A stretch of DNA of 64,000 bases from Hormiphora californensis (Eukaryota > Animalia > Ctenophora), in assembly GCA_020137815.1 (NCBI GenBank), contig CM035351.1, positions 2,108,001 through 2,172,000 of the forward strand, in the 5' to 3' direction. Positions 10,699 to 62,285 of the stretch are shown in pieces. The notes under the pieces are model-generated. The model did not search any database and was not told where the DNA came from. It saw only the letters and a list, made by a program, of their open reading frames with translations. The position numbers were made by a program, and so were the translations under genes. How positions within the stretch are numbered: the stretch's first letter is position 1; each line of letters opens with the position of its first letter.

Positions 10699-10746
10699 TG
10701 TAGCCCGATGAAGAGGTAGATCCTCGAAACTGGTAGCGTCATTATA
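10699..10746 (+). ncRNA. Putative variant minimal hammerhead ribozyme in the Penelope pLTR (also 13883-13930 + and 7877-7924 -)
   Basis: CCGATGA-a-GAGG(tagat)CCTC-GAAAC-tggtagc-GTC; core has C in place of U4 and stem I is weak. PLE pLTRs commonly carry minimal hammerheads. Confidence 0.5.
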
Positions 10747-10804
10747 CCCGTCTGATTCATTTGTCCAGCCACAGAGAGAATAACAAAAACTCTGAATATC
10801 AAAC

Positions 10805-16210: not shown

Positions 16211-19200
16211 ATGTCCAATAAAACCGGTTCCATTGTGGGAGACAGCCCTGTTCCCGGTGCCCAATCTGTGAGTTGTTGGGAGATGGGGATCGAGATTAAT
16301 GTTGTTGTAGTTCAGTAATTGATGCAGAAAGAGGGAGAGAGAGTTGATGTGGTTAATAAACACTGTTCGTAATAACTATGAGATGAGCAACACATGTGTT
16401 TATGTTATTGGATTTTGGCATACATATACTGTTGTTGTTATTCTGACCATGACATGATCTATCGCATGTCCTTATGATGACTTGTATTGTACCGTGTGGG
16501 GCAATAAAAATGCCCCCCCAAGTCTACCATAGTTCCAGATATCGTGGAGCGCTAAAATTTGGTACAGTAACTCTATGAGACAAATAAATAACTTTGCCAA
16601 AATTTCAGACCTCTAGCTCAAAATTCATTTTTTTGATCGGAATGAACATTGTCATTCATTTCAGGAAAAAATATTTTCCGGTCCAAAATTTAGCTAATTA
16701 TGTTTGGCTATCCATTTGCATTCCAATGGGACCAAGATCAGCTAAATTGGACAAACACAAGAGACACAGTGTCATGTTGCTTTAAGTTAGTCAGGTCATG
16801 TGATCTTCACCGAATCGTTGAGTTTCCGGGATTGCTAATCGGGCCAATGGGCAAAGGAATCTCGTATCATGGCCGCTAATTGGGTATGTGTACCAATACA
16901 GGGTGATGTGATTCGAGGAAAGAGGACATTTATCAAAGAGCTACAGATCTCATGACTAATCAGCATCGTCATCCCTCATTAGCAGATGTGATACGTGATT
17001 CTCTACCACTTAGACCAATTCGTAATACTGAACACGATCAACGATTCAGTGAAGATCACATGACCTGACTAACTTTAAGAAACATGACACTGTGTCTCTT
17101 GTGGTTGTCCAATTTAGCTGATCTTGGTCACATTGGAAAGCTAATCGATAGCCAAACATAATTGGTTAAATTTTGAACCGGAAAATATTTTTCCCTGGAA
17201 TGAATGACAATGTTCATTCCGATCAAAAAAATGAATTTTGAGCTAGAGGTCTGAAATTTTGGTCAAGTTATTTATTTGTCTCATAGAGTTACTGTACCAA
17301 ATTTTAGCGCTCCACGATATCTGGAACTATGGCAGACTTGGGGGGGCATTTTTATTGCCCCACACGGTATCTTGAGCTTTATTATTGTCCCTCTGGATCT
17401 CCGCAAGAGTTTAATTCTAATAAGTACCCCATTTCAGAGTTTTCTTACGGAGATCAGTGACTCAGCGAGTACAGTAACGGACGTGGTAGACAGGTTACGG
17501 GGCCTCGGAACCTTGTATGAAGACGAGGGAGAAAGCCAGTTCACATCGCCCCTCCCACCCCGGGTAGGTACTACCATATATGGTGTGGTGCTACCATATA
17601 TGGCACAGAGCACTACCATACGATTAGCTGGTGGAGTTGTTGTCCAACTGTATTTTTCTCTCATCTTTTAATACTCCTCCTCACTTCCAGTTCCCCCTCT
17701 CTGGGACCATGCTTGAGCTTCTCAAGTAGCTCATGCAGTTTGTGTGTCCATTAGTAATTAGCAAATGTGTTTGAGTGCCCTGAAACTCCCAACTAAGATG
17801 ACATACCCCTGAAATACACGTTCCCACCCTTTCTTAGCATTTAATTTTGATGCAGGTATCATTTCTAACTTCTTATCTCGTTTCACATGTGCACTCCCTG
17901 TTTCAGCCTCCCTCAGAAACTGGATCAGAGTTCGATACAGATTTAGAAGACGAGCCAGAGACAAAGACCGAATATGACTCCTCAGGAATCGATCTCTATC
18001 TTAAGGTTATTTTTAAACATAACATAGGAATATAAATTTAGGAAAGTAATTTAAGTTTAGAAACTTCAAAAGTTTTGACAGGACGAACCGCACACGAAGA
18101 AAGCATCGACGTTCATATTTAATTTCCGTTCCCGTTTATTCTTTAGTTCCCTATTATATAATACGATCTTTCCTATGTATTATGTACTGATGATTGGTGC
18201 CTCCTCGTGGGGCATCATGAAACATGTGTATAGACCTTAAAAACTTCTGTTGTTTTTAATTTGTATTATGCAAAATGCTAAAACATAAATTCCAGTCTGG
18301 CGGCTGTCAAACCGGGAATGCGTAGCACAGCACATATGCTCCTCCGTCTAACTACATAATTACAATTAAATTAAATTACAATTAAATTTTAGATCTGCGA
18401 AGGAATGACGATGAGGCCGGTTTCCCAGTTTATGCGACAGACCAAGAATCCCTACCTGTCCCTCAAGTACCAGTCACTAGGATGCAAGAATACAGTGGCT
18501 ATCACACGGGCCCTTGCAGTAAGTAAATGGGGTAACAACCTGGCCCAGGAGTTAAGTCACTTGACACTGTGATTTAGAATAAAAAGAAATTATGAATAAT
18601 TCAACCCAGGAGTATCTTACACGAGAGGGGAAATGACGGCATTTGGAGCTGTGTAGCTTCTATTCCCTAACCCCAGTAACATCCCTAAGTAACCTCCCTC
18701 GCCCCAGTAACCTCCCTAACCTCCCCTCTTCTTCTCCAGTAACCTCCCTAACCTCCCCTCTTCTTCTCCAGTAACCTCCCTAACCTCCCCTCTTCTTCTC
18801 CAGTAACCTCCCTAACCTCCCCTCTTCTTCCCCAGTAACCTCCCTAACCTCCCCTCTTCTTCTCCAGTAACCTCCCTAACCTCCCCTCTTCTTCTCCAGT
18901 AACCTCCCTAACCTCCCCTCTTCTTCTCCAGTAACCTCCCTAACCTCCCCTCTTCTTCTCCAGTAACCTCCCTAACCTCCCCTCTTCTTCTCCAGTAACC
19001 TCCCTAACCTCCCCTCTTCTTCTCCAGTAACCTCCCTAACCTCCCCTCTTCTTCTCCAGTAACCTCCCTAACCTCCCCTCTTCTTCTCCAGTAACCTCCC
19101 TAACCTCCCCTCTTCTTCTCCAGTAACCTCCCTAACCTCCCCTCTTCTTCTCCAGTAACCTCCCTAACCTCCCCTCTTCTTCTCCAGTAACCTCCCTAAC

Positions 19201-22200
19201 CTCCCCTCTTCTTCTCCAGTAACCTCCCTAACCTCCCCTCTTCTTCTCCAGTAACCTCCCTAACCTCCCCTCTTCTTCTCCAGTAACCTCCCTAACCTCC
19301 CCTCTTCTTCTCCAGTAACCTCCCTAACCTCCCCTCTTCTTCTCCAGTAACCTCCCTAACCTCCCCTCTTCTTCTCCAGTAACCTCCCTAACCTCCCCTC
19401 TTCTTCTCCAGTAACCTCCCTAACCTCCCCTCTTCTTCTCCAGTAACCTCCCTAACCTCCCCTCTTCTTCTCCAGTAACCTCCCTAACCTCCCCTCTTCT
19501 TCTCCAGTAACCTCCCTAACCTCCCCTCTTCTTCCCCAGTAACCTCCCTAACCTCCCCTCTTCTTCCCCAGTAACCTCCCTAACCTCCCCTCTTCTTCCC
19601 CAGTAACCTCCCTAACCTCCCCTCTTCTTCTCCAGTAACCTCCCTAACCTCCCCTCTTATTCTCCAGTAACCTCCCTAACCTCCCCTCTTCTTCTCCAGT
19701 AACCTCCCCTCTTCTTCTCCAGTAACCTCCCTAACCTCCCCTCTTCTTCCCCAGTAACCTCCCTAACCTCCCCTCTTCTTCCCCAGTAACCTCCCTAACC
19801 TCCCCTCTTCTTCTCCAGTAACCTCCCTAACCTCCCCTCTTCTCCTCCAGTAACCTCCCTAACCCCCCTCTTCTCCCCCAGAGTAACACGCACGTGGAGA
19901 GGTTGGATCTCTCAGATGCTGATATCGGGTGTGACGGAATGATTAGTGTGGCCAATATGCTGACAGAGAACTACTTTATTACCGATCTCAGTGAGTTGAA
20001 ACAACAACAGTTCAAACTGGGACAACGCTAAAACAATTTATTCACTCAAAAGTGGTTGAACAGAGCAACAAGCATTCATGCTATAATGGCACCCTGCTAT
20101 CTCTCTCTCCTAGTTAAAGTAACGATCTCACCTCACCACCACATGCACCTTCATTGAATTAATTATTAATTAGCATGACATGTGAAACTGCACTACATAC
20201 CGCCTTAATTAAACAGCTACTGAGTACGTGAAGCAGTTCTTAGAGACACATTCATGCCGGAAACAATTCCATATTTCTCCAGAATTACGGCAGGGGCCGT
20301 TTTCGAACCGACAGATATTTAGTAGCCCTTTCCCACTCTCTGTTCCCTCTCTGCTACCCTATCCCCCTAACACACTACTCCCCTGCTCAAATCCCCCTAA
20401 CACTACTCCCCTAATCTCAGATCTAAAGGACAACAAGATTGGAGATAGTGGTGTTACTTCGCTGTGTAGAGTCCTCTCAGATCACTCCTATGTGAAGAGG
20501 CTGAACCTCTCTGGGAACGGTCTGGGGAACGGTGCTGCTAACCTAGTCTCGGAGATGCTACAACAAAATTACACTCTTAGTTCCCTGAACCTGTGTAACA
20601 ACCACATCTCGTGAGTCTTAGTTCCCTGAACCTGTGTAACAAGCACATCTCGTGAGTCTTAGTTCCCTGAACCTGTGTAACAACCACATCTCGTGAGTCT
20701 TAGTTCCCTGAACCTGTGTAACAACCACATCTCGTGAGTCTTAGTTCCCTGAACCTGTGTAACAACCACATCTCGTGAGTCTTAGTTCCCTGAACCTGTG
20801 TAACAACCACATCTCGTGAGTCTTAGTTCCCTGAACCTGTGTAACAACCACATCTCGTGAGTCTTAGTTCCCTGAACCTGTGTAACAACCACATCTCGTG
20901 AGTCTTAGTTCCCTGAACCTGTGTAACAACCACATCTCGTGAGTCTTAGTTCCCTGAACCTGTGTAACAACCACTGAACCTGTGTAACAACCACATCTCG
21001 TGAGTCTTAGTTCCCTGAACCTGTGTAACAACCACATCTCGTGAGTCTTAGTTCCCTGAACCTGTGTAACAACCACATCTCGTGAGTCTTAGTTCCCTGA
21101 ACCTGTGTAACAACCACATCTCGTGAGTCTTAGTTCCCTGAACCTGTGTAACAACCACATCTCGTGAGTCTTAGTTCCCTGAACCTGTGTAACAACCACA
21201 TCTCGTGAGTCTTAGTTCCCTGAACCTGTGTAACAACCACATCTCGTGAGTCTTAGTTCCCTGAACCTGTGTAACAACCACATCTCGTGAGTCTTAGTTC
21301 CCTGAACCTGTGTAACAACCACATCTCGTGAGTCTTAGTTCCCTGAACCTGTGTAACAACCACATCTCGTGAGTTATGTAGGGTGAGCGGAGCCACTGAC
21401 TTTAAAATGCTACTGCTAGGCGCCTCAAGGGTACCTAATAGGTACTACCTATAGACCTTCCCTCGACCCTCGAGTGTGCTCTGTGATTTTCCGGTCCAAT
21501 AAACCTAGCTCAAACTGTGAGACCAACCTATTTTATCACCCTAACAGCTGCTCTCATTCAGGTGTGTAGGAGCTAAAGCGCTGGCAAGTGCCCTGGTTGG
21601 GAATGATACCCTCTCAGATGTTGACCTCAGCAGTAACCGGATATCAAGAAAGGGTAGTGAGAGTTTGGGTAAAATGGTAGCCGTAAATAGTGGACTACTT
21701 TCTCTTAACTTGAGGAGTAACGGCCTCGATACAGCAGTGAGTTGTTGGATATTTATTGACATGGACCCGTGTTACGCAAGTAACATGCACAGTTTTCAAC
21801 AATTTTGCTGAATGGGATACTTGTTACAGATCGTTATCTCATCATTAGTATAATAGGACTCAAAGTTAACTCACTTAAACCTTGTCATACAAACTGACTG
21901 TAAAATGGTAGCCGGCCCGGTTACTGGTTAGGAGAGTGCGGTGTGAGACAAGCTCAACCTGTTTTATCCTGACTATATCTCCATCTCAGGGGGCGAATAG
22001 TTTTATAAAGGCAATCAAGCAAAATGGCACCTTGTTAAATCTAGATATAACGTGAGTTATCAAAATTTTAGATATATTTTGAATATGTACCGACCATCTC
22101 TAATCATCTTCCTCGCATTTCAACTGCAACATGTTCCCCTCCCATGATCCCCTCCCTTTTTCTCAGAAACACGAGGTTTCCTGGAAAACTCTCGAAGGAG

Positions 22201-27334: not shown

Positions 27335-28840
27335 TCTCGCTCTCTCTATCTTTTTCTCCCCACTCTCGATAATTCATCAATTTTTCTTCCTGCACAGGAT
27401 CTCGATCAGTTTGCTTATGACTCAAATGATACTACTTACTTGATACTTGGAACGGTCTCCTCAATCATTCGAGTGGCCGGCTTCCGGTATCCTCACTCTT
27501 AGCGTCGTAAGCTGTCGCCATTCGTTACGGTTCATTGCAGTCGTAGTAATTGTACGGATAGACTGGGATTTTCCTGTAGCGTCTCGATAGTCATTTAACA
27601 CACAGGAGGACCAAGTTTTTCGTGGTCTTCCTCTGGATCGTTTTCCATGACTAGGCACCCAATGATAAAGTCTGTTGGGAACCCTATCCTCAGGCATTCT
27701 AATCATGTGCCCAAACCATCGGAGTCTTCCATTGCCAATGAACGCAGATAATGGTTCTATCCCAGCTCTCTCCAATACCTCCCTGTTAGACACCCGCTTA
27801 TACCATTGTATTCTCAGGATTCTCCGCAGGCACCGTTGGTGGAATGCCTCCACGCGGCGATCTTGCACCTGGGTTGTTGTCCAGGCCTCACAACCATAGA
27901 GAAGCACCGTCAGAACAGCAGCTCTGTATATCCTGATCTTGGTACAGGTCCTGATGTTACGGTTGTACCAGATCCGACAAAGCATACTGAATGCACTGTA
28001 GGCTTTCCCTATCCTGATACCCAGCTCCTTGTCGATGGTACCATCAGAGGACAAAGCCGATCCGAGATAGGTAAAACTGGAAACCTGCTCAACCGGATTA
28101 CCCTCCACAGAAATGCTGACCGTATCCGCCTCGGAAAATGGGCGCTGGCTAAGACCCTTTGAAAAAGCTACAACTTTGGTCTTCTTCGCGTTAATCTTCA
28201 AGCCAGCATACCCTGCGTATTTTACCAGCAAATCTGTAGACTCCTGGAGACCTTCCTCAGTATCATCCATAACAGCCATGTCATCAGCATAGTCGAGGTC
28301 CATGATCCATTCCCCACCCTCATCACTCTCAGCGCCGTGAAGAGTGAGACCCCTGGAGACAGTCTTGTTGGACTCAGCAAGCTGAGCCGCCCAGTTAATC
28401 ACGATGTTAAAGACTGGAGGACCCTGGATGTCGCCTTGACCAGTACCACTGAGAACACTGAACCAGCTGGAGAGCTCCCCACCATGTCTCACTGCACTCA
28501 TAGTACCGTCAAAGAATGCTCGAATTATCCGGACATACTTCTCTGGAAGACCGTAATGGCGAAATGCGGCCCAGACGAAATCCCTGTTTATACAATCGAA
28601 AGCGGATTTGAAATCAATAAAGTTTATATACAACGGTAAATTATAATCGATACACTGGTGGATGATGGTACGGAGGGAATAAATCTGATCCACACAAGAC
28701 CGGTTACGTCTGAATCCACACTGATTCTCTCGAAGTGCCAATTCAAGACCATTCAAATGATAGGGGGAGTAGTTTTCCTTCATAGGAGTTTTTTTCGTGT
28801 CTTCTCCGTCTTAGGAGTTGTAGTTTGTGTAAATGTGTAA

Positions 28841-31817: not shown

Positions 31818-34800
31818 TAATATGATATCTTATACATATAAATATACACATGCATACATTATACAATATTGTAATTTCATAATATAATGTATTATTTATG
31901 ACTTATTCATCAGTAGTGTTACAGCTAATGTATGTTCCACAAAACATCGGAATCAGATTTCTCAATCTTCCTGGACTAAATGACCTCACTCTGCTTGCTG
32001 CAGAAGGTAGAGTCGTCCTGGCAAACTCCTACGTTCTAGCGGCCAACAGTCCTGTTATCAAAGAAAAGTTAACAAGAAATGGCCGCGGGAAGGAGAGATA
32101 TACTGGCGAGTCATCAGGGGAAACATCCCAGAAGGAGGATGATAAAGGTCTGGAAGCCGATTTAAATGGTGTGCCGACTGAGGGAAACAGCATTGCTGAG
32201 CAGACTGTAGGAACAATGGAGATTGACCTGTCTGAGTTTTCTGAAGACACAGTGTGGAAGTTTGTTTTGTGCTGTTATGCTGGAATTCGTTTGTACAAGG
32301 GGGAAGATACAACTGAAGTTGATAAACTGGCTGACTTCCTTGAGGTCAAATGGTACAAAAAGGGGTGGATAGAGAGACTCAGCGAGTTTTTTAGCATAGA
32401 ATGGAATTTACAAACAAGTATGGTTCCCCAAAATTTCGGCGATGAAAACCTTGAAGTTGCTTGTCTCCTAGACATTAAATTTGAGACTCTGGGTGGAAGA
32501 ATGGTCGAAGCCAGTTCTTTTGTTATGGCCTGCAACAGTCCTATCATCCTAGAATTAGTGGGCAAGAAGAAAATGAACGAAGTTGATTTACAGGAATTCT
32601 CAGATGGTGCAGTAAACTGTTTTGTTTATGCGTGCTACACTGGTTCGGTTACACAATTCCTCACTGAGGAATACTTTCGAGAGATCAACAAGTTGAGTAT
32701 AGCCCTGAAAGTTAAATGGATCCGGTCAGAATGCCTTACGTTCTACTGCAAGCTTTGTGCAAACTTGACAAACTCTCTCGAAAATGCGCTATTCCTTTTT
32801 GAAGAAGCGGCATTTCTGATGAGAGAGGCAGGGAATCAAGGTAGGAAGTTTCAAAGGGCCCTTGATATTGGCCTAGATTGGAATCCTGATTTGCGATTGA
32901 AGATTGTTGAGAGTTTTATGGCCCGGAATCTTGCGAACGAATTTACCGCTAAAGCGGATCTTTGCATTCAACTGGCATATTCATCAGCAGCTATTGAAGT
33001 TATCTACAAACGTTTTGTTGATCTCCTTTCGGAAAAAACTCAGCCGTTCACTCTAAACGAATGTGAATCCAGATTCATAAACCACGATGCTCTAAACTAC
33101 TGCGAAATGTTTTATCCAGAGTTATACTATGAATTTATGAAAAAGTTGTATTCAGGATGGAGCATCGATGATCTAAGGATGGGATTTGGTATGCCAGGTA
33201 GAGGTCTGTCTGTTAATTATTTCAGATCAGAATCAGCCGACGAAATTGAAATCCGAGAGAAGATGGAGTGGGGAAAATCTCTAATCGTTCAGTTTCCAAT
33301 TGACTTTCAGTTTCATGTGTGGGAATTTGATATGATAAATAAGCTACAAGAGAGTCTGACTCGTCATCAGCTTTTGGAAGCCATGCATGAGGTTGACTCA
33401 ATTCTAGGATCAAACGAAGGTTTATTTCAACACATGCATGAATGGTTTACACTTGAATTCTTTGTAAGACTATTTTTATCCATTGCTGACGGCGTCAGGC
33501 CGCCTGACGCTGTGGATGAAAGACGAAGGATACCTCGTCCCGCTAATGAACCTCTTGCATTAAGAAATTGGAAAATTCTGGCGAATACACTTTTTGTAAT
33601 AACTTTTATGGTGTTGTTCTTTGAATATTTTATTTCATATCTTTGTGGCATAAATATTATAGATATTAAGATAAGATCATCACGTCCGTTTTACTATGCA
33701 TTGAAACTTTCTTTTCTTATTATATTTGTATTATATCCATTTCTCATCGCTTTCATCGATGTATACTGGACCAGTGAAAGGGTCTGGAGTAATCAAATTT
33801 TGAAAGGAATTGTTTGGCTGTTGAAAATGTATAATACAGCAAGAACAAAGAACAAGCCTAGCCGAGTTATTGTATCTGATGAGATAGAGGGAGATATCCG
33901 GCAATATTTTAATATCTGTTTGGATCTTCAGGGTGTTTGTAAGAAATCCCCAACCTCTTCTACCAATCGGTGCAGTATTGCAGTTAAAGTTTCTACTTGC
34001 TTTGCAGACGATTCGTTGAATGTTAAAATCCAGTTGTGTGATGATAGGAAATTTCTTAACGAGAAACAGAGAGAGACGTGTTTACATCAGGATCAGTCTA
34101 TTATAAAATCAATGTTTGTTCGGGTTGGTGGTCGGTCGATTACGGCCCGATTTCAGGGTCGTCGCTATAACGATATATACAATTACAGTGACAGTAACCC
34201 GGCCACCATAGAATATCCGGGAAGTGGGTCTGCGAAACTGATCCAACAGGGCCCACTGGAGCTATTCTGGCTTCCAATGATACCCAAATAAAAATGTGGC
34301 GGTTATATAATGTTATGTACTAAATGCTATAGTGTAGTTCCCTGTTTCATCATGAGTTCATTTTTGCATGCCACTGCAGCCGCAGTTTTTAGCATGATAC
34401 CTATGTTCTATAAGATATTTTCCTTCATAAGAGAGGATTTGTATTGAAGTTACTATACCTAAAAAACTAAGTCACCCACCATTATAAGTAAGATAATATA
34501 GAAATATATATGATATATCTGAGTTAGTAGAGGTTGGTGTTAGGTGTGGAGGTTGGTGTTAGGTGTGGAGGTTGCTGTTAGGTGTGGAGGTTGCTGTTAG
34601 GTGCGGTGGTCGGTGCTAAGTGTGGTGGTTGGTGTTAGGTGTGGTGCTCTGTGTTATATAGTCTTGACTCTAGGGTCTGTCTAATACTTACGGTCTTGTC
34701 CATAAACAGCAATTTCAGCGATGTTGTAAATTGTCGCAAGTTTTTCGAATCTGAATAAGTGTTAGAATGTTAGAAATGGTACAGGAAATATTTGGTCTAG

Positions 34801-37800
34801 GGAATGATCAATGATAAAGAGTAAAATACGTGTGTTACTTACTTTATATCTGTTATGTAAGTGCTCCCAATACTGTCTTCATTGCAAAACAAGGTGTAAG
34901 TTTGGGCTGCCACTGAGTTATAGGGTAACCTAGAGAAAGAAGCAGGCTAGGTATAGGTGTGTAATATTACTAAATAACACCAAAAAGTTGTCCGGCCGCC
35001 CAGGTACATTCTGGAAAATTATGCGAATCACATCATCCTTGTTTACCTTAGCTTGTCGAGTGTTCCACAAAGGCCAGTAGTTCCTGTACTATACCCAAGA
35101 ACAATCTGTAACAAAATACGAGATTATGAGATAAGTTACCATTTGAGCTTGCGGTTGAAATAAATCATTAAATCATCATAAAATAATCAGCTGTACAACA
35201 GTTTACACTGTGTCTATAATACCTTTGTATTATTAATCCTCTCTGAAACTGACGCATGTACTTCTTCAATCCTATTAACAATAACCACTTTCCGTACTAT
35301 TTTAGTTGGTCTTGCTAGGGTGACCGCCAGCCAGTGAGTAGTCGTTGTTCCTGATCGACCTGACATCCAGAAAGTATCCCAATGCCCGTCCAGGACTAGG
35401 TTTGGGTTACAACACTGTGACTTGTTGTGGGAGTTGGAGTTGTATTGGGAGTTGACTTGAAGAGAAGCTATACCGAGTGGCTCCCAAGCAGCTCCTCTCC
35501 GGGTCGCCAGGAGAAGGAGTAGGAATATCATAATTCTGACTAAAATTTAGGATAGAAATGTCAAAAAGTAGAAAGTTGACATCGTTCTAGAACTTAAGTA
35601 AAAAAAGCAAGTGTAGTAACTGGACATACGACAGAGGGACTAGTAGTAGAGGCAGGGATGTCACGACTAATGTCACGACTAATGTCACGAATAATGTCAT
35701 TCACTGTGGCGTGGCGTGGCTAGACAACTTGGGGTGTTTAGCTGCTGAGAGAGGGAAAGAGAGGATGAGCTATGAAATAACACTGCAACTGCTGCAGTAA
35801 ACCAGTAGGGAAAATGCCAGGTCCTACCATTTGGAGATGGTGGAGGCTGGTGGGGTAGTATATCTTGGATTCCAAGATACAGGTCCTACCAGTTTATTAA
35901 CATTGTGCTCCTCATTCATGTACAAGAGATTTGGATTCTATAAACAATCTCGACTCTCGAGTATGATTCACCGGACCAGTTTTTATTGTTGAAGTATAGA
36001 GGGTCACGCATGTAGGGGAAGGGGGGGGGGCAGGGTACGCCAAGGTCCCAGGACTTTTCAGGAAATGGCCCCGGTACTTTTCATGATTTGACAAAATCAA
36101 CGACTTTTTGGCCTAAAAACCGAAAAATTTTCTGGGGTCCCAATAAAAACCATGCCAGGAGACGAAATACCGGACACTGCACATGCCAGTTAAGTAGTAT
36201 AGTGATAAATAAGCTAGATAATAGATATATCTGAGTTAGAGAAGGTTAGTTAGGTGTGAGGAGTGGTGGTTGCCGGTTGGTGTTAGGTGTGGAGGTTGGT
36301 GTTAGGTGTGGTGGTTGGTGTTATATAGTCTTGACTCTAGGGTCTGTCTAATACTTACGGTCTTGTCCATAAACACCAACTTCAGCGATGTTTGTAATCG
36401 TCGTTAGTTTTTCGAATCTGAATGTTAGAATGTTAGTACAGGTACAGGAAATATGTGGTCTAGGGAATGGTAAAGGGTAAAATATGATTGTTACTTACTT
36501 TATAACTGTTATGTAAGTACTCCCAATGCTGTCTTCATTGCAAAACAAGGTGTAAGTTTGGGCTGCCACTGAGTTGTAGGGTAACCTAGAGGAAGTAGGT
36601 GTAATATTGCGAAATAACACAAAAGTTGTCCGGTAGCCCAGGTACATGCTGGAAAATTATGTATTGTATACCTAACGTATACCGTTCCACAAAGGCCAGT
36701 AGCTCCAGTACTATACCCAAGAACAATCTGTAACAAAAGAAGAGATAATGAAATTAAATACATACATCTGGGATAGCATTTAAAATTTGAGATAAATCAT
36801 CATAAAATAATAAGCTTTAACAGTTTACATTGTGTCTATAATAATACCTTTGTATTATTAATCCTCTCTGAAACTGACGCATGTACTTCTTCAATCCTAT
36901 TAACAATAACCACTTTCCGTACTATTTTAGTTGGTCTTGCTAGGGTGACCGCCAGCCAGTGAGTGGTCGTTGTTCCTGATCGACCTGACATCCAGAAAGT
37001 TTCCCAATGCCCGTCCAGGACAAAGTTTGGGTTGCAGCACTGTGACTTGTTGTGGGAGTTGGAGTTGTATTGGGAGTTGACTTGAAGAGAAGCTATACCG
37101 AGTGGCTCCCAAGCAGCTCCTCTCCAGATCGCCAGGAGAAGAAGTAGGAATATCATAATTCTAAAATTTAGGATAGAAATGTCAAAAAAGTAGAAATTGG
37201 TTGAAAAGTAGAAAGTTAATTGCGTTCCAAAAGTAAAGTAAAAAAGCAAGAGAAGTGTTGGACAAGCTGGGTGTTGGTGGCTTGCTTTAGGTTGGTGACG
37301 CGGCCACCCCTGCACTAGGATCTCATCACCAATGCTTTAGGTGCTCCTATAGAATTGAAACACTTAGTTTTACAAGCTGTGAATTGGGTTTAAAGAGGGT
37401 GGACATTTTGCAAGCCCGCTTTATGATGCAAATCTGAACTCAAAAGTTCCGAGCTGTAAAGAGTGCTAAACTTTTGGAAACAATAGCTGCTTCTAAGATT
37501 CTAAGAACAAGAAAGGGTTTTAATGAGGAGTGTAAAATGTGCAGACAGCTATCAATCACCAGAGACTGCAGAAATACTAACACGTGATAAACTTGTCAGT
37601 CACTGACTGTACATCACGCACGAGATTACAGTCAGGCCCCGATCCCTGCCTTATCTGTTATCACGCACAGAGATTACCACACGGTGTGTTTTACAGTTTT
37701 TCCACTCTTCAAAAACCTTTGTTTTATGGTTTCCGAAAGTGAGAGACTCGTAAAGAGAGAGAAGAGTTGGTGCGAGACAGCACTTGCCTTGCCTTCGGCC

Positions 37801-51992: not shown

Positions 51993-53153
51993 TTATGTTC
52001 ATTTGAAGTTGCACAATCCCCTGGTATACCTAGCTACCACCCAATTCACTGTGTCAATGTGATGAAGAGTGTCAGCTAAAATAACTTTCTAAGAACTGTT
52101 GACTATCACACAGAGCAACAATTCTTGGTAAGACAGTAAGATAGATGAATTCTTCTTCTTAAATTGTGTACCCAATGGTGAGCACTGAGCTGCCTTCAGC
52201 TACATGGTTAAGAATTCAGACAGCACCTGATGATTAAATTGGTCGGTCACCACTTAGTCCTCAAATTACCATTCGCCTTGGTGACGCAGTCACCCTTACA
52301 ACTCGTGCGTGAAGCGCGATAAAACAACTCGTTGTAAGAGAGGCACCACCAACCATTCGCCAGCATCGTGTCGCCACTCGCCATACCCCATGGAGAGCAG
52401 AAGGGCTGGGGACGAAGTACATAGTAAAAACTTGGCATGAGCTGCAACGCAGATACACTCATACACAGTGAGGGTCGCGGGATGTGCATCATTTCATGCA
52501 GCTCAAGATTGAGCATATGTCATATTGGTAAATATATCTGGGCGATGTCTGGACGACGTCAGCAGCAAGTCGCTATTCACTACCCCAACACCGATTGGCT
52601 TAGTTGATTGATGTCCAGGCCCCTTTACTTTGGTACGGGATAAGGCAGCGCTTTTCAATTGACTTGGCCTACGCTGCAGTCCCTCTTAACCCTATCAAGG
52701 AGCTGGGAAGGTCGGGGGATTGGCATATTCTGTATTCAGTATTCTACAGACAAATACTCACTAGAATGCACTAATAATTCAACACTTAACAAAGAGTTTA
52801 AGTTAACTTGTAAACTGTTTAACGTTTCCACGCTGCTGCAAACGCTGCTGGCCCTATTTGGAACACACTTCCGCAGTCTGCGTCACGTAGTGGGATACGG
52901 CAGCGCTTTTCAACCGAGTCGGGAATCCCGGCCTGGCCAGGCAGGCGCCAATACGATCTGGGTGTTTGGGAAGCCTGTTTACAGGTGCACGCTGGCCGCT
53001 GCCAAAAAAGTACCCTGCACTAAAACGGCTCCAACCGCCAAACCACTCAACCGTTTTGGCTAATTCAACGTTTATCTGATAGGAAATGTCAAGTACTAAC
53101 CCCAACCCAAACCCAGCCCTAACCTTAACCCTACTTTAACCCTAAACTTCAAC

Positions 53154-53194
53154 TTTCAAACTTTTCAACACTACTTTAAACAAATTAATTTGAG
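53154..53194 (+). other. Spliced-leader exon copy 1 at the CR1 5' end
   Basis: TTTCAAACTTTTCAACACTACTTTAAACAAATTAATTTGAG; identical to 58114-58154; matches the ctenophore SL as I recall it. Confidence 0.88.
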
Positions 53195-53230
53195 GTGCGG
53201 CATCCTCCACCTCAAATGATTTCAGAAGAT

Positions 53231-54529
53231 ATGTCCTCTACAAATACAACTGAGGAACAACTGCGGATAATCTCGGAGCTGGTAGCTGAAGCGGATACCC
53301 CTGTCAAGGAGGTGCTCCAAGCCTATGATCCTGAGTTAACCTATGAGGAGATGCTACCGAAGATCGAAACACTCCCTGTAAGTGACCTAGAGGCTACTGC
53401 AGCTTTCCTCGGACAAGAGGTGACATGTGTGACTGGAGCGAAAAAATACCACTCAGAGAGAACACTGTCAGACTGGATTATCATGAGGACTGAGGCTCTC
53501 TTTCCCCAAACATGTAGAGAGTGTAGTGAATCCTATACGGTGAAAAGGACTGATACACCCCCTGTTCGGTGTAACTATTGCGATGCTGGACTTCACAACT
53601 GTGCGGCTATCCTTGCTGAAGCTGGGAACACAACCAACACAAGGAGCCGAATATGGATGTGCAACGACTGTGTCTCAAAACATACTATTGAGAGGTTCAA
53701 CAGTCACCTACCTGAGGGAGGTCCTCCAAACCCTACTCTTAATTCAACTCGACGCAGTTCAAATAGAGAGGTATTGGACAGAAGGACCAGTCAGCCTGCT
53801 GGCGGACGGAACGATCTTGCTGGCAGAAGGAATAATGGCCCACCTACCGGTGGAGATACAGGGTCGGACACGGAGGTTTGTAAATTCTACCTGCAGAGGA
53901 GATGCCGACACGGCAAAAACGGAACCGCCAGGGTTGGAAACAGAACCTGCCCAAAAGCCCACCCCACCCTGTGTAAAAAGTTCTGTAACTATGGAACCAT
54001 GAGGAGATTTGGATGTAATACTGAAAATTGCAACCTATTTCATCCTCCCCTCTGTAAGAACTCAGAGTTACGTCACCAGTGCTTTAAACAAAACTGCATG
54101 AAGCAACATCTAAAAGATACTCAGCGGAGCCCGCCTTTTAGAGTTGATGAAGCACCCCGGAACACTGGTTTAAATGCTCGGAATGATCGTGACAGAAACC
54201 AATCCTCTCGGAGCAGGGGTGCAAACCAAGCACCTCCAAATGAACCAGGAATCTGGTCGTCTGAGCCAACTAGGGATAGGATACCAAGCAGATCCCAATG
54301 GCCTCAGGATCAGAACAGGGGCACGAGGCCTGACCCAGACCCGGCTTTTTTAGACGCCATCATCGACCGTCTCAGGGACTCTATAGCCGGGATAGTGAGG
54401 ATGGAAATGAGGAATCGCCCGGAGCGGGAGCCCGACCAACAGCACTACAGCTCCCAGCCGACCCAACTCCCGCCAGGAATGGGCAACACATACAGTCCTC
54501 ATCATCAGAGGGACAGACGGTCTTACTAA
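53231..54529 (+). CDS. CR1 ORF1 with PHD-like finger and CCCH zinc fingers
   Basis: CREC...CNYC...HNC...WMCNDC; CKFYLQRRCRHG...CPKAHP, CKKF...C...CNLFHP, C..S...CF...C..QH. An in-frame ATG also exists at 53216. Confidence 0.85.
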   Translation: MSSTNTTEEQLRIISELVAEADTPVKEVLQAYDPELTYEEMLPKIETLPVSDLEATAAFLGQEVTCVTGAKKYHSERTLSDWIIMRTEALFPQTCRECSESYTVKRTDTPPVRCNYCDAGLHNCAAILAEAGNTTNTRSRIWMCNDCVSKHTIERFNSHLPEGGPPNPTLNSTRRSSNREVLDRRTSQPAGGRNDLAGRRNNGPPTGGDTGSDTEVCKFYLQRRCRHGKNGTARVGNRTCPKAHPTLCKKFCNYGTMRRFGCNTENCNLFHPPLCKNSELRHQCFKQNCMKQHLKDTQRSPPFRVDEAPRNTGLNARNDRDRNQSSRSRGANQAPPNEPGIWSSEPTRDRIPSRSQWPQDQNRGTRPDPDPAFLDAIIDRLRDSIAGIVRMEMRNRPEREPDQQHYSSQPTQLPPGMGNTYSPHHQRDRRSY

Positions 54530-57500
54530 ATACAGCAGGACCCTCAGTTCCCAGTAATCTCTCAAAACTGTTGCTTCTAAACGCCCGTAGCCTGAACCCG
54601 TCTGCGGGCAGTGAGGCAAGGTTCAAACTGGAGAACTTGAAGGACACCATTATGAACTCAAATATTCCTGTCATGGCTGCAGCCATCACGGAAACTTGGT
54701 GGCGGGCAGAATACTCGGACGCACAGGTTAATATTCCTGGTTTTTCTGTCATCCGCAGCGATCGGGAAGGTAGGGTTGGGGGTGGCTGTGCCCTCTATCT
54801 CCACTCATCGGTGACCCCTTCCGATCAGATCACATTTTCAGATGAAAGCAACAGTGTTGTGGCGGTATACATTCCAAACATGAACTGTATTATCTCGTCA
54901 GTTTACAGGGCTCCCACAGTGCCTGTGAACCTAGTTCTTGGGATTTTGGAGGAATTTATCTCACGTCACTCGTGTGAAGATTGTCCTCCAGATGTGTTTA
55001 CGCTTGGTGACTTTAACATGCCTCAGGTAAACTGGACATCAGTATCAGCGGATCAGGGAAATGCTCTGGTTGACTTTGCTGAGAGAAATTTCCTTACCCA
55101 GTTGGTTACAGAGCCTACTAGAGGACGGAACATTTTAGACATTGTACTTACAAACAGGGTGGATTATGTTTTTGACACCGATGTATCAGCCACCCAGATG
55201 TCGGACCACTCCATGGTGTCTTGTGTCCTCGGAATCGGGATCCACCAGTCCAAAACAGAACGTGCAGCAGCTGGAAAAGGATTCAAGGCCCTTGACTACC
55301 ACAACGCAGATTTTACTGCTGCAGGAGAGGAGCTGAGCAGTATTGATTGGGACACACTCCTATCCTCTTGTACTTCAGACGATGATGGCCACTCAATTGT
55401 GCAGTGTATCAGAGAGAAGATACTAGAGGTATTTGAAAAACACAGCAAGAGAAAGAGGTTTGGTACCCAGAGAAAGAGAGATCCCTACCTGAGAAGACTG
55501 AAAAGGAGGCAGAAAAAGCTGAACTCTCGGATGAAACTGGCCAAGCAGAGATGCTCACACCAGTCCCTCATCGATAAACTCGAACGCAAGATAGACAAGA
55601 CAGCCGATAAGATTAAGGCGTACTTGTTAGGCCTGCTGGAAGTAAAGGAGAGGAAAGCCATTGACACTATCAAATCAAATTCACGGTTTTTCTGGTCCTT
55701 TGTCAACAAGCACCGAAAAATCAAATCGAGTGTGGCTCCACTCCTGAGACCTGATGGTACAGTGACTGATGACCCTCTGGAAAAGTCAAATATTCTCCAG
55801 TCGCAATATGTAGGAGTATTCAGTGATCCGTCCATGTGCTCGGTTGAGGAGGCTATCAAGGACATTCCTTCTACGACCTGCACGCTAGATGAACTTGACT
55901 TCACCCCTGGTTGTATTGAAGCTGCACTGGCTGAATTGGACCCCTACGCTGGAGCACCTTCAGATGACATACCTGCGGTTATACTATCAAAGTGCCGGAA
56001 ACAGCTAGCATACCCACTTTGGTTGCTCTGGAACCGTTCATTCACTGAGGGTGTTGTACCAGGTTGTCTCAAACGGCAACAGGTGACCCCAATTTTCAAA
56101 AAGGGTTCAAAGATGGAGGCTAAAAACTATCGCCCTGTTGCCCTCACATCCCATATGATAAAAACTTTTGAAAGGGTTGTGAGGAACAAAGTTGTGGATC
56201 ACCTGGAGGGAAATGGAATCTTCAATGATGGTCAGCACGGCTTTCGGAGAAATAGGAGTTGTCTGACCCATCTTTTGAACCACTATGACAACATCATGCG
56301 TGAACTGAATAACGGTCTGGAAGTGGACGTTGTTTATTTGGATATGGAGAAGGCGTTCGATAAAGTCGATATCAAGGTTTTATTGGGCAAGCTTGAGAAG
56401 TATGGTATACGTGGAAGACTTCTCCGCTGGATAAGTGACTTTCTTTCAGCTAGAATACAGACAGTAGTGGTGGATGGAGTTCAGTCTCGGCCGGAACTCG
56501 TCATTAGTGGAGTCCCCCAGGGCACTGTTCTTGGCCCGCTTCTGTTCTTGGTTTATATGATAGACATTGAATCACTTCTTGCTGGAACAGTCCTAACTTT
56601 TGCAGATGACTCCAAGCTGTGAAAAGCGATCAGGTCACTCAACGACAGAGATAACCTGCAGCTGAGTCTTAATGAATTTGGACGTTGGGCTTCAGACAAC
56701 AATATGTCACTCCATCAGGATAAGTTTGAGGTGATAAATTATACACTTCGCTCCACCCAACTCCTGAGGGAGCTTCCTTTCTCCACTGACAATTATCTTT
56801 ACAATGGTCCCGGAGGCGAGGCAATATCACCAAGTTTCACTGTGAGAGATCTAGGGGTCCTTGTATCTGCAGACTGCACTTGGTCAGAACACATAGGCAG
56901 CATTACTGCCAAGGCTAGACGCATGAGTGGCTGGGCACTTAGTGTATTTCGGGATAGATCCGATGATACTATGCTAACGTTACTGAAGTCCATCATTAGG
57001 CCTCAGGTGGAGTACTGTTGTCCATTATGGAGCCCGGTGAAAAAGTCTGATATCGCCCTGGTTGAAGAGGCTCAAAGACACTTCACACGTAGGATTGAGA
57101 GCTGTTCCGGCATGGGGTACTGGGATCGGCTCCAACATCTTGGTATCTTGTCCCTCCAGCGGCGTCGTGAGCGATACATGATTATCCATGTCTGGAAGGT
57201 TCTTCATGAGGTAGTTCCAAACGGCACGGGTCTCCTGTTTACTGAGCACACCCGTCTTGGTACCAGAGCATTGGTCCCCCGCTACAATTACCTCGCTCAA
57301 AAATCCATATCTGGCCCTTATGACTCATCATTCGGTGTTAGAGGAGCACAGTTGTGGAATTCCCTACCCCGTGCAGTGAGAGAGGCAACATCACTGCTCG
57401 AGTTGAAACAGTCCCTTGGGTCCTACTTAACCACCATCCCCGACCAGCCACCTGTCCGCGGTTACCGGGTGGAGCACAGTAACTCCTTGATTGATTGGAG

Positions 57501-57540
57501 AAATGACCCCAGTGTGTTTAAAGAGATGGGCGAATCATAG
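54346..57540 (+). pseudogene. CR1 ORF2 (APE endonuclease + RT) with one in-frame TGA at 56620-56622
   Basis: LNARSL, ITETW, GDFN, LDIVLTN, SDH, NYRPVALTS, QHGF, KAFD, GVPQG, FADD; ORFs 54571 and 56704 are in the same frame; LQRRRER CR1 C-terminus. Confidence 0.88.
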
Positions 57541-58113
57541 AAATGTGTTTTGCTTTTCATTGTCATTTGGCTGATACATATAACCTGCTGACTTTCCATG
57601 TCATCTGAGTGTTGGCTCCTTTTGAGCTAAAGCTTTGTGTACAATACTAAATTTATTTACGAATGTTTACGAATGTTTACGAATGTCTAACCCTAAAAAC
57701 CGCGAGTGCTGTCACTCCAAACAGTAAACACCCAGATTTTAACTTTGGCCAGGCAGAAAAAAACTGAAAATGCGTTTTCGCCGAATTTTGTGCTGCAAAC
57801 TTGACTGAATTAAGCGCCATAGCACGGCCGCGGCTAAAAAATTTCCAAAAACTCTGCAAAAGGGGAGCCGCGCACAATGCGATGTAGCTCAGCTCGGTTC
57901 ACCAAAACTTGAGACCTGGTTTCGAAAATGAAAAAATGAAACTTTCCTTTCGCGGTTCGCACTTCGCCGTTGAAAAGCGCTGCTTAATCACCCGATTGCG
58001 GAGTGGGACCTCATGACAAGCTACCAAAATACTTGGCTAAAACTCAAAACTAATTTGTCTTTAAATTTTGAACTTCCCTTGAAGAAGGTCGACCCTCCCC
58101 CGCCGCGCATTCA

Positions 58114-58154
58114 TTTCAAACTTTTCAACACTACTTTAAACAAATTAATTTGAG
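58114..58154 (+). other. Spliced-leader exon copy 2 at the L2 5' end
   Basis: Identical 41-mer to 53154-53194 (44 nt including the following GTG). Confidence 0.88.
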
Positions 58155-58188
58155 GTGGTACCTCGTGCCCCTCAATCCCCCTGTAGAA

Positions 58189-59379
58189 ATGTCCGGAGCA
58201 CGTGATGGAGCACTAACAAGAGGTGCAGCAAAGAGGGGTGGTACACGTACCTGCCTGGGGTGCAAAGCAGAAGAACAGGACGCAGATAACACAGATGTGA
58301 GTACTGGAAGGGGTTGGTGTTGGTTGTGCGAGGGATGCTATGGTCGTGTTCAGGGCGGTTGTTGTTTACCTGAGGTTAGTAGTCCAGTTGAGGGTGGGGC
58401 GCCTACTGAGGCGGATGCTGTAGGGGTGGTTCTAAATGACGGGACCTGTGAGAAAATAGCATCGATGGTTGTTGCGGCTTGTGGGTTGAAAGTTGACTGT
58501 CTGGTCAGCAAGATAGCTGACAAACTGGTCGAATATAGTGTGGAAGGGAGTGGTTTAGAGGATAGAGTTGGGGTTGAGCGGGGTTCTTTTGCAGATGTAG
58601 CAAAAAAGCAAACGACTGGTAAGATTGTGGTGAAGAATGGAGGAGAGGGTTTTGTTGATCGTGCCTCGGAAGCCCTAAGTAAGACCCCTTTAACGTACCT
58701 TAGACAGGAGAAGGATGGGAGTGTTATCATAGCTCTTCCAGATGAAGAGACTCTGTCCTCTGCAGAAAAACGATTGACTGAAATTATCCCAGAGAATGCA
58801 CAAGTTACCAAATCGGTCCGTCACCCGAAAATAACCATCAGAGACTTTCCTTTGCCATCGGCGGTTTCTGCACGGAATGCTTCTGTACGGGATGCTTCTG
58901 TACGGGATGAGCTGAATGCGAAGATCACAGAGGCCGTTAAGATAAAGAACCCTGATCTGAGAGATTTGATTGAAAGGGGTGACAAGTTCGATGTGGTATA
59001 CGTAGGTAAGAGCGGAAATAGGGAAACTGCACCAGTGGGGGTGAGAGTGTCATGCGACATTAGGGACTTGCTGACACGTAAGGGACGTGTATTTATTGGA
59101 AACAGTTCCTGCAGGGTTGAAGACCGTCATTATATCCCACAGTGTTATAAATGTCAAAGGTATGGTCATAAGTCTAATGAATGTGAACAGACAAGTTATA
59201 CTTGCAAGTTCTGTGCCGGATCCCATGATACCAGACGCTGTCCGGACATGTCGAGGGTTTGTTGTGCTAACTGTTTGAAATCGAGGGATACACAACTACG
59301 AGGAAGAGCATATTACCATAATGCGGGATCTTTGGATTGTCCAGTATACCTCCTCAAACTCAGGAACTCAAAAAACTAA
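58189..59379 (+). CDS. L2 ORF1, gag-like with three CCHC-type knuckles
   Basis: QCYKCQRYGHKSNEC, CKFCAGSHDTRRC, CANC...HNAGSLDC; N-terminal Cys motif; ends SKN*. Confidence 0.88.
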   Translation: MSGARDGALTRGAAKRGGTRTCLGCKAEEQDADNTDVSTGRGWCWLCEGCYGRVQGGCCLPEVSSPVEGGAPTEADAVGVVLNDGTCEKIASMVVAACGLKVDCLVSKIADKLVEYSVEGSGLEDRVGVERGSFADVAKKQTTGKIVVKNGGEGFVDRASEALSKTPLTYLRQEKDGSVIIALPDEETLSSAEKRLTEIIPENAQVTKSVRHPKITIRDFPLPSAVSARNASVRDASVRDELNAKITEAVKIKNPDLRDLIERGDKFDVVYVGKSGNRETAPVGVRVSCDIRDLLTRKGRVFIGNSSCRVEDRHYIPQCYKCQRYGHKSNECEQTSYTCKFCAGSHDTRRCPDMSRVCCANCLKSRDTQLRGRAYYHNAGSLDCPVYLLKLRNSKN

Positions 59380-62285
59380 GAAACGATAAAGGACAACTAC
59401 TGAAAAACAGGACTTTGAAGGTTGGTCTGGCAAACTGCTTCTCGCTAAGGAATAAGGTGTACTCCATTATCGAGTTAATGGTTCAACATAATCTTTCCTG
59501 CTTAGCACTAACAGAGACCTGGCTCAATCAAGATGAATCGGCATTGGCTGTAGAGTTTAAAGAGTTTGGCTTTACATTGGTTAATACTGCGAGACGTAAT
59601 GGGAAAAAAGGGGGAGGAGTTGGTTTCATTTTCCGGGATGACATCAAGTTTACTACTTATAACATCAAATCTACTTCATTTGAATGTACCGAGGCATTTG
59701 TAAAGGGAAGGGTAGGACTTCGCTTTTCAGTTGTCTACAGAACGGGGAATGAACATGCCCAATTCCTTACTGAGTTTAGTGACTATCTATCCTCATTCGT
59801 ATCGAAAGGTGGTGTTCCTGTGATCCTTGGAGACTTTAACGTTAGGTTCCAAGATGAGGCGGATAGTTTTACAAGGAGATTTAAGGACATCATTGATTCA
59901 GAGGGTTGGTTACAACATGTGGTTGGCCCGACTCACACCAGGGGTGGAACACTAGACCTGGTACTGACAAGAAAAGACGAAGACATTGGTTTAAGTGATG
60001 TTGAGGTATATCGTTCTCCGGCTTTACCAGATCATTCCCTTGTGAGCTTCTGCCTGGAAGTTTCTGGTATAAGTTCCACATCAGACTATAGGACGGCCAC
60101 TAGTCGAATGATGAAAGACTTCGATATAGAAGATCTAAGAAGTGACGTACTTGGATCGGATCTGTGTGGGGAGCTACCTGATGATTTAGATGACTGTGTA
60201 GCGCTATTCAATACTGAAACTCGATCATTCATGGACAAGAGAGCACCATATGTAACCAGAAGAGTGAAAACTAGAAATGAACAATGGTATAACCAGAACT
60301 ATGATAAATGTCAGTCAGCCAAGAGGATGCGAAGGAGAAAGGAAAGAAAGTACTGGGGTAAATTGGGGAAATCAACAGATCCAATGGAGTTGTTGAATTT
60401 GTACCAGGATTATGCTGAACAAGACAAAGAGACTGAGCGGGTGTTACGGAGTGTGAGAGAAGGATTTTTTGCAGCGAAGCTAGAAGGACAGCGGCATGAT
60501 CCACGGGGAACATGGCAAACCACCAACTATCTCTTGGGTAGACAGAAACCAGCGGTTGTACCTACTAACATAGCACATACGGATCTAGCTGATTCTTTTA
60601 TGGCTGCTTTCAAAGGGAAGGTCGAAAAGATCTACAGTGCGATGGATAAGGAACGACAAGACTTGCCCCACTTTCAAGACCCCACTACACATTCCAACAC
60701 ACCGCCTGATTTCGAGTTTACAAGCATCTCTGATGAGACACTCCGAGCAACTTTATTTGACATGGGGACAAAGCATTGTGAGTTGGATCCTCTTCCCACA
60801 TCATATGTGCGGAGTCTCTTTGCTGAATTATTGCCTATCCTTTCTAAAATCGTCAACTCTAGCTTAACCACGGGGGTCTTTCCTTCCGAACTCAAGACTG
60901 CTCTGATTCGACCCCTCATCAAGAAAGCTGGTCTAGATCCGGATGATCTTGGTAACTATAGACCCGTCAGTAACTTGCCTTTTCTTGGTAAACTTATCGA
61001 GAGATGTGCAGCAGATCAGTTTGTGAAGCACCTTGAAGACCATGCGTTACTGCCCAAAAACCAGTCTGCCTACCGTGCGAACAAGAGCTGTGAGACGGCG
61101 ACTCTCCGCATTCTGGATGATCTACTAATGCTAACAGACGATAAATCGAAGGTTGCACTTTTACTCTTAGATATGAGTGCTGCATTCGATACTGTTAACC
61201 ATTCTGTCTTGCTGCAACGACTTAAGAAGTTGTATGGGGTGAAAGGTACATCTTTAGCATGGTTTGAGAGCTATCTCACGGGCAGAACTGCGTCAGTATC
61301 GGTTGGGCAGGTTAAGTCGACTCTTACAGCAATTGGTATCGGGGTGCCTCAGGGTTCTATTTTGGGCCCTATTCTTTTTATATGCTACACTGCAGAGCTG
61401 GAATCGATTGCCTTAAGGAATGGTGTACATATTCACTTTTATGCTGATGATACCCAGATATACGCCGCTTTTTCGACTGAGAACTTTGCGGAGACCGAAC
61501 GGAGACTTCGAAAGTGTGCCACGGACATTCAGTCTTGGCTAACGGCGAGCTTCCTGCGTCTCAATCCATCTAAGACTGAGATCCTGATATTATCGCCTAA
61601 AGACTCCAATACTCAAAGCTCTTTCCAGCTGGTTGAGGGCGCTGAACCTTTACCTGTTGCTACTTCTGTGAGGAATCTGGGAGTGTATTTTGATGATAGG
61701 CTATCTTTTGATGAACATGTGACCAGAATCGTCAACTCCTGTAATGCTACATTGGTGAATCTATGGAGGGTAGGAGGTAAACTTTCAAGGAAACTAAAGA
61801 CTACCCTTGTGGCGAGCCTTATACACTCTAAGTTGGACTACTGTAACTCCCTGTTGACTGGTATTACGAAGAAGAATTTAGACAGACTGCAAAAGATCCA
61901 GAATGCTGCTGCAAGGTTCATTTATGGCCAGAGAAAATGGAGGGGTACTACCAACTTGAGAAAGGCACTGCACTTTCTCCCAGTAGCTGAGAGAATTGAG
62001 TTCAAAGTATGTGTACTGGTGTATAAATGTGTCAACGGTGTTGCACCTGGCTACTTATCTGACCGAATTCAAAAAAGAAAGAGGAAATCTATGAGTCTCA
62101 GAAAAGATGACGACAACCTTCTCTTGGAGACACCAAGGGCTAGGTATAAACTAAACGAAAGTGCCTTCAGTGTATGCGGCCCAAAGTTTTGGAACCAATT
62201 GCCAAGAAGACTTAGATCTGCTGAATCCTTAAACAGTTTTAAAAGAGATCTGAAGACGCATCTGTTTGGAAAGGCATTTGGGTAG
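59370..62285 (+). CDS. L2 ORF2 APE endonuclease + reverse transcriptase, intact
   Basis: NCFSL, LTETW, GDFN, TLDLV, DH, NYRPVSNL, QSAYR, AAFD, GVPQGS, YADD, SKLDYCNSLL, QNAAAR, WNQLP. Confidence 0.95.
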   Translation, partial: KKLRNDKGQLLKNRTLKVGLANCFSLRNKVYSIIELMVQHNLSCLALTETWLNQDESALAVEFKEFGFTLVNTARRNGKKGGGVGFIFRDDIKFTTYNIKSTSFECTEAFVKGRVGLRFSVVYRTGNEHAQFLTEFSDYLSSFVSKGGVPVILGDFNVRFQDEADSFTRRFKDIIDSEGWLQHVVGPTHTRGGTLDLVLTRKDEDIGLSDVEVYRSPALPDHSLVSFCLEVSGISSTSDYRTATSRMMKDFDIEDLRSDVLGSDLCGELPDDLDDCVALFNTETRSFMDKRAPYVTRRVKTRNEQWYNQNYDKCQSAKRMRRRKERKYWGKLGKSTDPMELLNLYQDYAEQDKETERVLRSVREGFFAAKLEGQRHDPRGTWQTTNYLLGRQKPAVVPTNIAHTDLADSFMAAFKGKVEKIYSAMDKERQDLPHFQDPTTHSNTPPDFEFTSISDETLRATLFDMGTKHCELDPLPTSYVRSLFAELLPILSKIVNSSLTTGVFPSELKTALIRPLIKKAGLDPDDLGNYRPVSNLPFLGKLIERCAADQFVKHLEDHALLPKNQSAYRANKSCETATLRILDDLLMLTDDKSKVALLLLDMSAAFDTVNHSVLLQRLKKLYGVKGTSLAWFESYLTGRTASVSVGQVKSTLTAIGIGVPQGSILGPILFICYTAELESIALRNGVHIHFYADDTQIYAAFSTENFAETERRLRKCATDIQSWLTASFLRLNPSKTEILILSPKDSNTQSSFQLVEGAEPLPVATSVRNLGVYFDDRLSFDEHVTRIVNSCNATLVNLWRVGGKLSRKLKTTLVASLIHSKLDYCNSLLTGITKKNLDRLQKIQNAAARFIYGQRKWRGTTNLRKALHFLPVAERIEFKVCVLVYKCVNGVAPGYLSDRIQKRKRKSMSLRKDDDNLLLETPRARYKLNESAFSVCGPKFWNQLPRRLRSAESLNSFKRDLKTHLFGKAFG

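Follow-up and report, generated by a model that had tools for sequence, protein, structure and literature searches.

Two genomic LINEs from the ctenophore Hormiphora californensis begin with the same spliced-leader (SL) exon, which raises the question of how such a head is regained in each cycle, and what is done by the short spacer with a second AG that separates it from the first ORF. LINEs must rebuild their 5' end in every cycle, a problem that known elements solve with internal promoters or ribozymes. The window analysed here (the whole 64,000-nt stretch of contig CM035351.1, positions 2,108,001 to 2,172,000) contains exactly two copies of the 41-nt SL in a search allowing up to three mismatches, one at the head of each element. 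The sequence equals the final 41 nt of the H. californensis leader as given in the accessible part of PMC8527503. The parts of the two elements, in window positions, are as follows.

53137-53146, + strand: left TSD of the CR1-type LINE, 10 nt, identical to 57688-57697
53154-53194, + strand: SL exon at the CR1-type head, identical to the copy at 58114-58154
53182-53222, + strand: predicted CR1 hairpin of 15 bp with an inner stem of 2 bp, covering the end of the SL, the GTG and the CCTCAA arm
53193-53194, + strand: AG1, the terminal AG of the SL in CR1, putative acceptor
53195-53225, + strand: AG-free CR1 spacer, 31 nt, 3' end TTTCAG (AG2)
53216-53218, + strand: upstream ATG of CR1, in frame with ORF1 and adding MISED, within the 3' arm of the hairpin
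53231-54529, + strand: ORF1 of CR1, 432 aa from the second ATG, N-terminus resembling that of L082 (see below)
54334-57540, + strand: ORF2 of CR1 (APE endonuclease and RT), with a single in-frame stop at 56620-56622
57656-57697, + strand: tandem tail of CR1 with a 10-nt unit in 3.1 copies, and its right TSD
58114-58154, + strand: SL exon at the L2-type head, 41 nt
58150-58175, + strand: predicted L2 hairpin, 11 bp over the SL end, rivalled by an SL-RNA-like stem
58155-58186, + strand: AG-free L2 spacer, 32 nt, 3' end CTGTAG (AG2), putative acceptor
58189-59379, + strand: ORF1 of L2, 396 aa, with a CCHC knuckle (zf-CCHC, E 0.002, below the cut-off)
59322-62285, + strand: ORF2 of L2 (APE and RT), an open frame

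Both elements are APE-type LINEs, in which an ORF2 with APE and RT follows an ORF1. Pfam Exo_endo_phos and RVT_1 were found in both ORF2s, whose best solved relatives are LINE-1 ORF2p, and a Pfam search with the CR1 ORF1 matched no family. The labels CR1 and L2 are presumptive and come from the original prediction and from C-terminal motifs. The TSD of CR1 lies upstream of the SL, and the SL is therefore part of the insertion; for the L2 copy, no TSD of at least 7 nt was found within the window. Seven extra letters (53147-53153) separate the CR1 TSD from the SL and repeat a piece of it, perhaps as a result of template jumping during formation of the 5' junction. The host repeat that surrounds the element contains degenerate CCCTAA units (53090-53146, 57688-57720), and empty-site contigs run from 53145 into sequence resembling its downstream flank. 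Elsewhere in the window, a third non-LTR RT frame (27461-28810, - strand) has no SL copy nearby and is probably 5'-truncated, and two oppositely oriented frames with RT and GIY-YIG, which we take to be Penelope-like, occupy 8222-13585 with a direct repeat of at least 300 nt at 9926 and 13110. Near-perfect tandem arrays lie at 18704-19881, where a 32-nt unit occurs in 37 copies, and at 20575-21374, where a 41-nt unit forms two runs of about 10 copies, and a single 802-aa frame with a BTB domain (31883-34291) is partially duplicated downstream (about 34513-37140).

In both heads the SL exon is cut exactly at its exon boundary and the SL RNA intron is absent. A candidate for the ctenophore SL RNA gene was recognised by its sequence in two metagenome loci, L088 (282-400) and L089, which belong to an array repeated in tandem every 778 bp and have two predicted stem-loops and a U-rich Sm-like site about 55 nt past the donor; the candidate has no Rfam family. 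As in the window LINEs, its SL exon is followed by GT; unlike the LINE spacers, its intron starts with GTAAG (GTAAGCTGAG in L088, which may come from a related species), its donor is stemmed with the exon and the unit is repeated in tandem. The idea that the spacers are a captured SL RNA intron, left by an SL RNA chimera, was rejected, as they diverge from the native intron after the GT. Since nothing of the SL RNA but its exon is found in each head, which breaks off at the donor and gives way to a spacer unlike the SL RNA intron, the template is best read as a trans-spliced RNA, and with an SL exon at the 5' end and no SL RNA intron both LINEs fit a retrocopy of such an RNA.

To place the two spacers among others, metagenome contigs were scanned for the exact last 22 nt of the SL, which yielded at least 121 loci; no match to the SL was found in viral or prokaryote contigs. 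Six loci were counted as further SL-headed elements (L028, L039, L043, L065, L072 and L082, making eight with the window pair), of which L072 is presumed to be a LINE from its motifs, and searches of Pfam, NCBIfam, PDB and profiles supported neither L072 nor L015 as a LINE ORF1. Four loci were set aside, namely L086 and L015 (unclear), L067 (a fold-back) and L019 (a chimeric 5' end), and the remaining 109, or 103 after removal of near-duplicates, were assumed to be host mRNAs and used as background. L015 (1-1041), from an mRNA-rich data set, carries CAG after its SL, encodes a relative of the L072 ORF (38% over 68 aa) and is possibly an element RNA keeping a 3-nt spacer; in L086 (165-486), the SL copy is genomic and precedes a GT, a long run rich in T and two YAGs. 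Four of the counted elements (L028, L039, L043 and L065) are genomic relatives of the window L2, 25-31% alike to it in both ORFs and 43-59% alike among themselves in ORF1, and L082 resembles the N-terminus of the CR1 ORF1 (33% over 63 aa). The four metagenome L2s form one clade, and the independent support from outside the window thus amounts to two or three lineages, in addition to the window's two. The SL is identical at 40-41 of 41 nt in all six, a figure inflated by the demand for 22 exact letters and unconstrained only over the 5' 19 nt, while their ORF1s are 25-59% alike where compared.

The architecture that the original prediction had proposed as shared, with GT, a hairpin back onto the SL end and an AG before the ATG, held across this set for the second AG, which recurs in all six further elements, but not for the GT (one of six) or for a strong hairpin (two of six). 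The first AG after the SL lies at +32 in L028 and L039 and at +34 in L065 (a GAG), L043 has one at +22 and then one at +33, and TTTYAG occurs at +6 in L072 and L082. Across all eight elements, the first AG thus falls at +31 to +34 in five, the sixth has its +33 AG after that at +22 and the other two have the TTTYAG at +6, whereas of the 103 hosts listed only 3 have their first AG between +29 and +34, 11 have any YAG there and none starts with TTYYAG. A pyrimidine-rich YAG no more than 7 nt from the ORF1 ATG was found in six of the eight elements and in 14 of 100 hosts among those listed; in L028, L039, L043 and L065 it lies 1-6 nt before the ATG, 144-182 nt downstream. The L2s, about 50-90% alike over their first 34 nt, retain AG-free spacers that end at +32 to +34. 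A GT directly follows the SL in one further element and in 8 of the 103 hosts listed; only one of the four related L2s that retain the AG has this donor, which is thus not conserved with the acceptor, and the +32/+33 AG is present without GT in L028, L043 and L039. Pairing back on the SL end exceeds 0.8 in L028 and L043 and in 7 of the 103 hosts listed (Mann-Whitney p 0.09 for elements against hosts without the window pair), although with the full SL the value for L043 falls to 0.15-0.68, and TCAA occurs inside +4 to +24 in two of the six and in 6 of the 103 hosts listed. Judged from these sequences, the putative second acceptor is a feature common to SL-headed elements, to which the GTG and the long hairpin are family-level additions.

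The pairings, GT..AG lengths (31 and 32 nt) and distances to the ATGs (53231 and 58189) given in the original prediction all proved correct when checked against the sequence. In CR1, TTTGAGGTG (53189-53197) and CACCTCAAA (53208-53216) are exact reverse complements of each other, as are TTGAGG (58150-58155) and CCTCAA (58170-58175) in L2. The hairpins are present beyond chance (z -2.9 to -3.9 against shuffles, with 0-2 of 200 shuffles equally stable), yet the stems originally described were too short, the folded ones having 15+2 bp in CR1 and 11 bp in L2. The CR1 hairpin has a pairing probability of 0.99 at all six folded lengths, and its 10-bp Watson-Crick helix is matched by none of the 103 host SL mRNAs listed and by 0.025% of spacer shuffles; the 6-bp helix of L2 is matched by 4 of the 103 listed and by 8% of shuffles. 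The L2 hairpin reaches 0.8 in short folds and is displaced in longer ones by a stem internal to the SL, which is the fold of the native SL RNA and wins (0.73-0.81) when at least 60 nt of downstream sequence is included. This stem is the true competitor in L2, and the alternative GAGGT/ACCTC pairing suggested for it was absent from the eight structures listed per fold. In the native SL RNA, the SL|GT is folded into a stem with its own exon (0.89-0.98), and in CR1 the hairpin replaces that stem (0.99). The two spacers share GTG and CCTCAA (+16 to +21) in exact register, but the 12 nt between the arms agree at a chance level (5 of 12 identical, p 0.28). Common descent of the two spacers was considered and found unsupported, with the middle 12 nt at chance and a global identity of 19/35, as in unrelated pairs. 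That the hairpin hides a cryptic SL|GT donor can hold only for the window families; L028 and L043 have a hairpin without GT, and L065 is the reverse, with a GT and no hairpin and with the SL-RNA-like fold preferred (0.6), so that in these predicted folds it is a counter-example to the covering of GT by a hairpin.

Use of the second AG was assessed by comparing the CR1 head with the contigs of four runs, whose kinds were guessed as DNA-like (X2, X6 and X7) and RNA-like (X20). One contig in X6 joins the SL to AG2 of CR1 and omits exactly the 31 nt with GT..AG ends; it has a depth of 28.5, a short side of 25 letters and a 2-letter overlap at the joint. The joint was absent from X2 and X7 and thus occurs in one of three DNA runs, and the form with the joint is clearly in the minority, at 28.5 against 854.9 for the unspliced contig of the same run, contig depth not being equal to copy number. 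In X20, contigs cover only the SL. Existing as DNA, the X6 joint is most simply a copy of a spliced RNA, and its GT..AG ends and precise product are equally expected from cis- or trans-splicing. Further deep contigs (X2, X6 and X7; organisms A and B) match the SL and spacer to 53215 with 2-4 changes and then diverge, one from X6 having, past this point, a T-rich CAG 2 letters before an ATG; a third SL-headed repeat keeps a T-rich CAG without the upstream ATG. To judge from their sequences, other SL-headed repeats in two organisms, presumably LINEs, thus retain the hairpin arm down to its final base together with an acceptor-like end. The ATG at 53216 in CR1, which the original prediction had overlooked, precedes the second AG and is retained in the organism-B contig according to its listed changes, so that ORF1p, for whose translation the original prediction had suggested the shorter RNA, could also be made from unspliced CR1 RNA. 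Complementarity to the SL end hence occurs in other SL-headed elements and a joint at the second AG exists, where the original prediction had named the lack of both as telling against it.

The reading we prefer, on which we are evenly balanced as a whole, is that these heads hold two trans-splice acceptors, the SL's own AG giving the full-length head and the second AG a rarer, short RNA. A copy would be transcribed from an upstream host promoter, and trans-splicing at the terminal AG of the SL would exchange the old SL for a fresh one, giving an SL-spacer-ORF1-ORF2 RNA as the main transposition template. Joining at the second AG would give SL-ORF1, occasionally copied into DNA, as the CR1 contig, seen as DNA, suggests. 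In the window families, the GT after the SL would let the RNA adopt a donor-like fold of the SL RNA; the CCTCAA arm is predicted to pair with the SL end instead, covering the GT and a possible branch point, so that most RNA would stay full length, and families without GT would require no such cover. That the second AG is a real acceptor seems probable; for CR1 its use has direct support from the X6 contig, and its recurrence in all six further elements points the same way. The spacer is read as a trans acceptor because an AG-free stretch ending in YAG, the form expected of an acceptor that has its own branch point, persists without GT, and the AG kept without GT in L028, L043 and L039 argues for trans- over cis-splicing, as far as sequence comparison can tell. 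Because the spacer survives many cycles, the template should be unspliced at the second AG and its SL either renewed or inherited; renewal by trans-splicing at the SL's own last AG is favoured, to a modest degree, because the SL equals the host SL across very distant families. GAG, as found at the SL end, is a rare acceptor, and a hairpin over this GAG should impede renewal there. Whether the predicted hairpin damps use of the second site in the window families is, to us, a question with equal weight on either side. More tentatively still, unrelated comb-jelly LINE clades may have converged on a promoterless, self-renewing head with an element-encoded, hairpin-tuned acceptor cassette that fixes how much template is made relative to short RNA.

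If the SL were instead inherited, it could act as an internal promoter and start site, with SL and spacer forming an outron and the second AG as the sole acceptor, so that the spliced RNA would be translated and the unspliced primary transcript would be the template. In nematodes, an SL exon serves as a promoter element, which counts for this account. So does the trypanosome LINE L1Tc, which has an internal 5' promoter according to what is accessible of PMC1874656. The account also explains why the second acceptor is kept in eight of eight elements and why a hairpin may lie over the SL end. It nevertheless requires that families with ORF1s 25-59% alike keep 41/41 nt the same as in the host SL. 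LINE proteins favour their own encoding RNA, and under this account the spliced form ought therefore to dominate new copies, yet this is the minor contig. On balance we think an inherited promoter unlikely.

The precise GT..AG ends of the joint and the nearly equal spacer lengths would also suit a cis intron of 31-32 nt in the window families, with a branch point in CCTCAA and splicing damped by the hairpin, and a weak GT is able to out-compete the SL for an acceptor, as stated in the accessible part of PMC4558846. The joint does not discriminate here, the product being the same as that of trans-splicing, and the retention of the +32/+33 AG in the three elements that lack GT, together with a donor-to-branch distance of about 20 nt, makes a cis intron the least probable of the accounts we weighed; the open-access titles searched gave no figure for the shortest ctenophore intron. 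Hardly more credible is the view that the second AG is a relic or a chance occurrence, the hairpin aids reverse transcription or stabilises the RNA and the joint is a jump of the reverse transcriptase at the foot of that hairpin. In CR1, the SL end and the second AG are alike in six of seven letters, the foot of the hairpin is at 53222, the joint has its 2-letter overlap and the AG lies inside the frame opened at 53216, and a strong YAG near the ATG was present in those 14 of 100 listed hosts, all of which this view accommodates. A skipped hairpin would more simply have left a deletion of the whole stem (53182-53222), however, and a relic would hardly explain the persistence of AG-free spacers in L2s so divergent over their first 34 nt or the T-rich CAG retained by the third repeat without an upstream ATG.

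SL-bearing retroelements as such are already known. In flatworms, LINE and LTR loci with an SL have been reported (597 in PMC12582326 and six in PMC5832876), and in the accessible parts of both papers the leader exon fused to the elements is read by the authors as the mark of copied trans-spliced RNAs; the leaders described there are partial and the loci were discarded, and those parts describe no retained spacer, second acceptor, hairpin or copy of a spliced form. In Hydra, about 30% of transposon long reads bear an SL, host trans-splicing being used as proposed here, although in what is accessible of PMC12220107 the SL is on the RNA and nothing is said of an SL encoded at the 5' end of an element. 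Open-access titles and the starts of abstracts yielded no SL-headed ctenophore LINE and no retained second acceptor, though loci of this kind may appear in the supplements to PMC12582326 and PMC8527503. For H. californensis itself, the same leader has 718 genomic copies, which the accessible part of PMC8527503 takes as leader loci or mapping artefacts and does not link to LINE heads. Our results suggest that some of these copies are LINE heads and not SL RNA genes, which bears on annotation. If the preferred reading of two trans-splice acceptors is true, renewal of the head through host trans-splicing would add a third way of rebuilding the LINE 5' end, carried by a cassette of 75 nt for which each model predicts a distinct cap, junction and mutant. 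NeSL, SLACS, CRE and CZAR are LINEs that adjoin an SL exon; their insertion targets are SL RNA genes and their endonuclease is restriction-like. An element targeting SL genes in this way was rejected for the present case, in which the TSD lies upstream of the SL and so encloses it, the flanks differ between elements and from L088, and the endonuclease is of the APE type.
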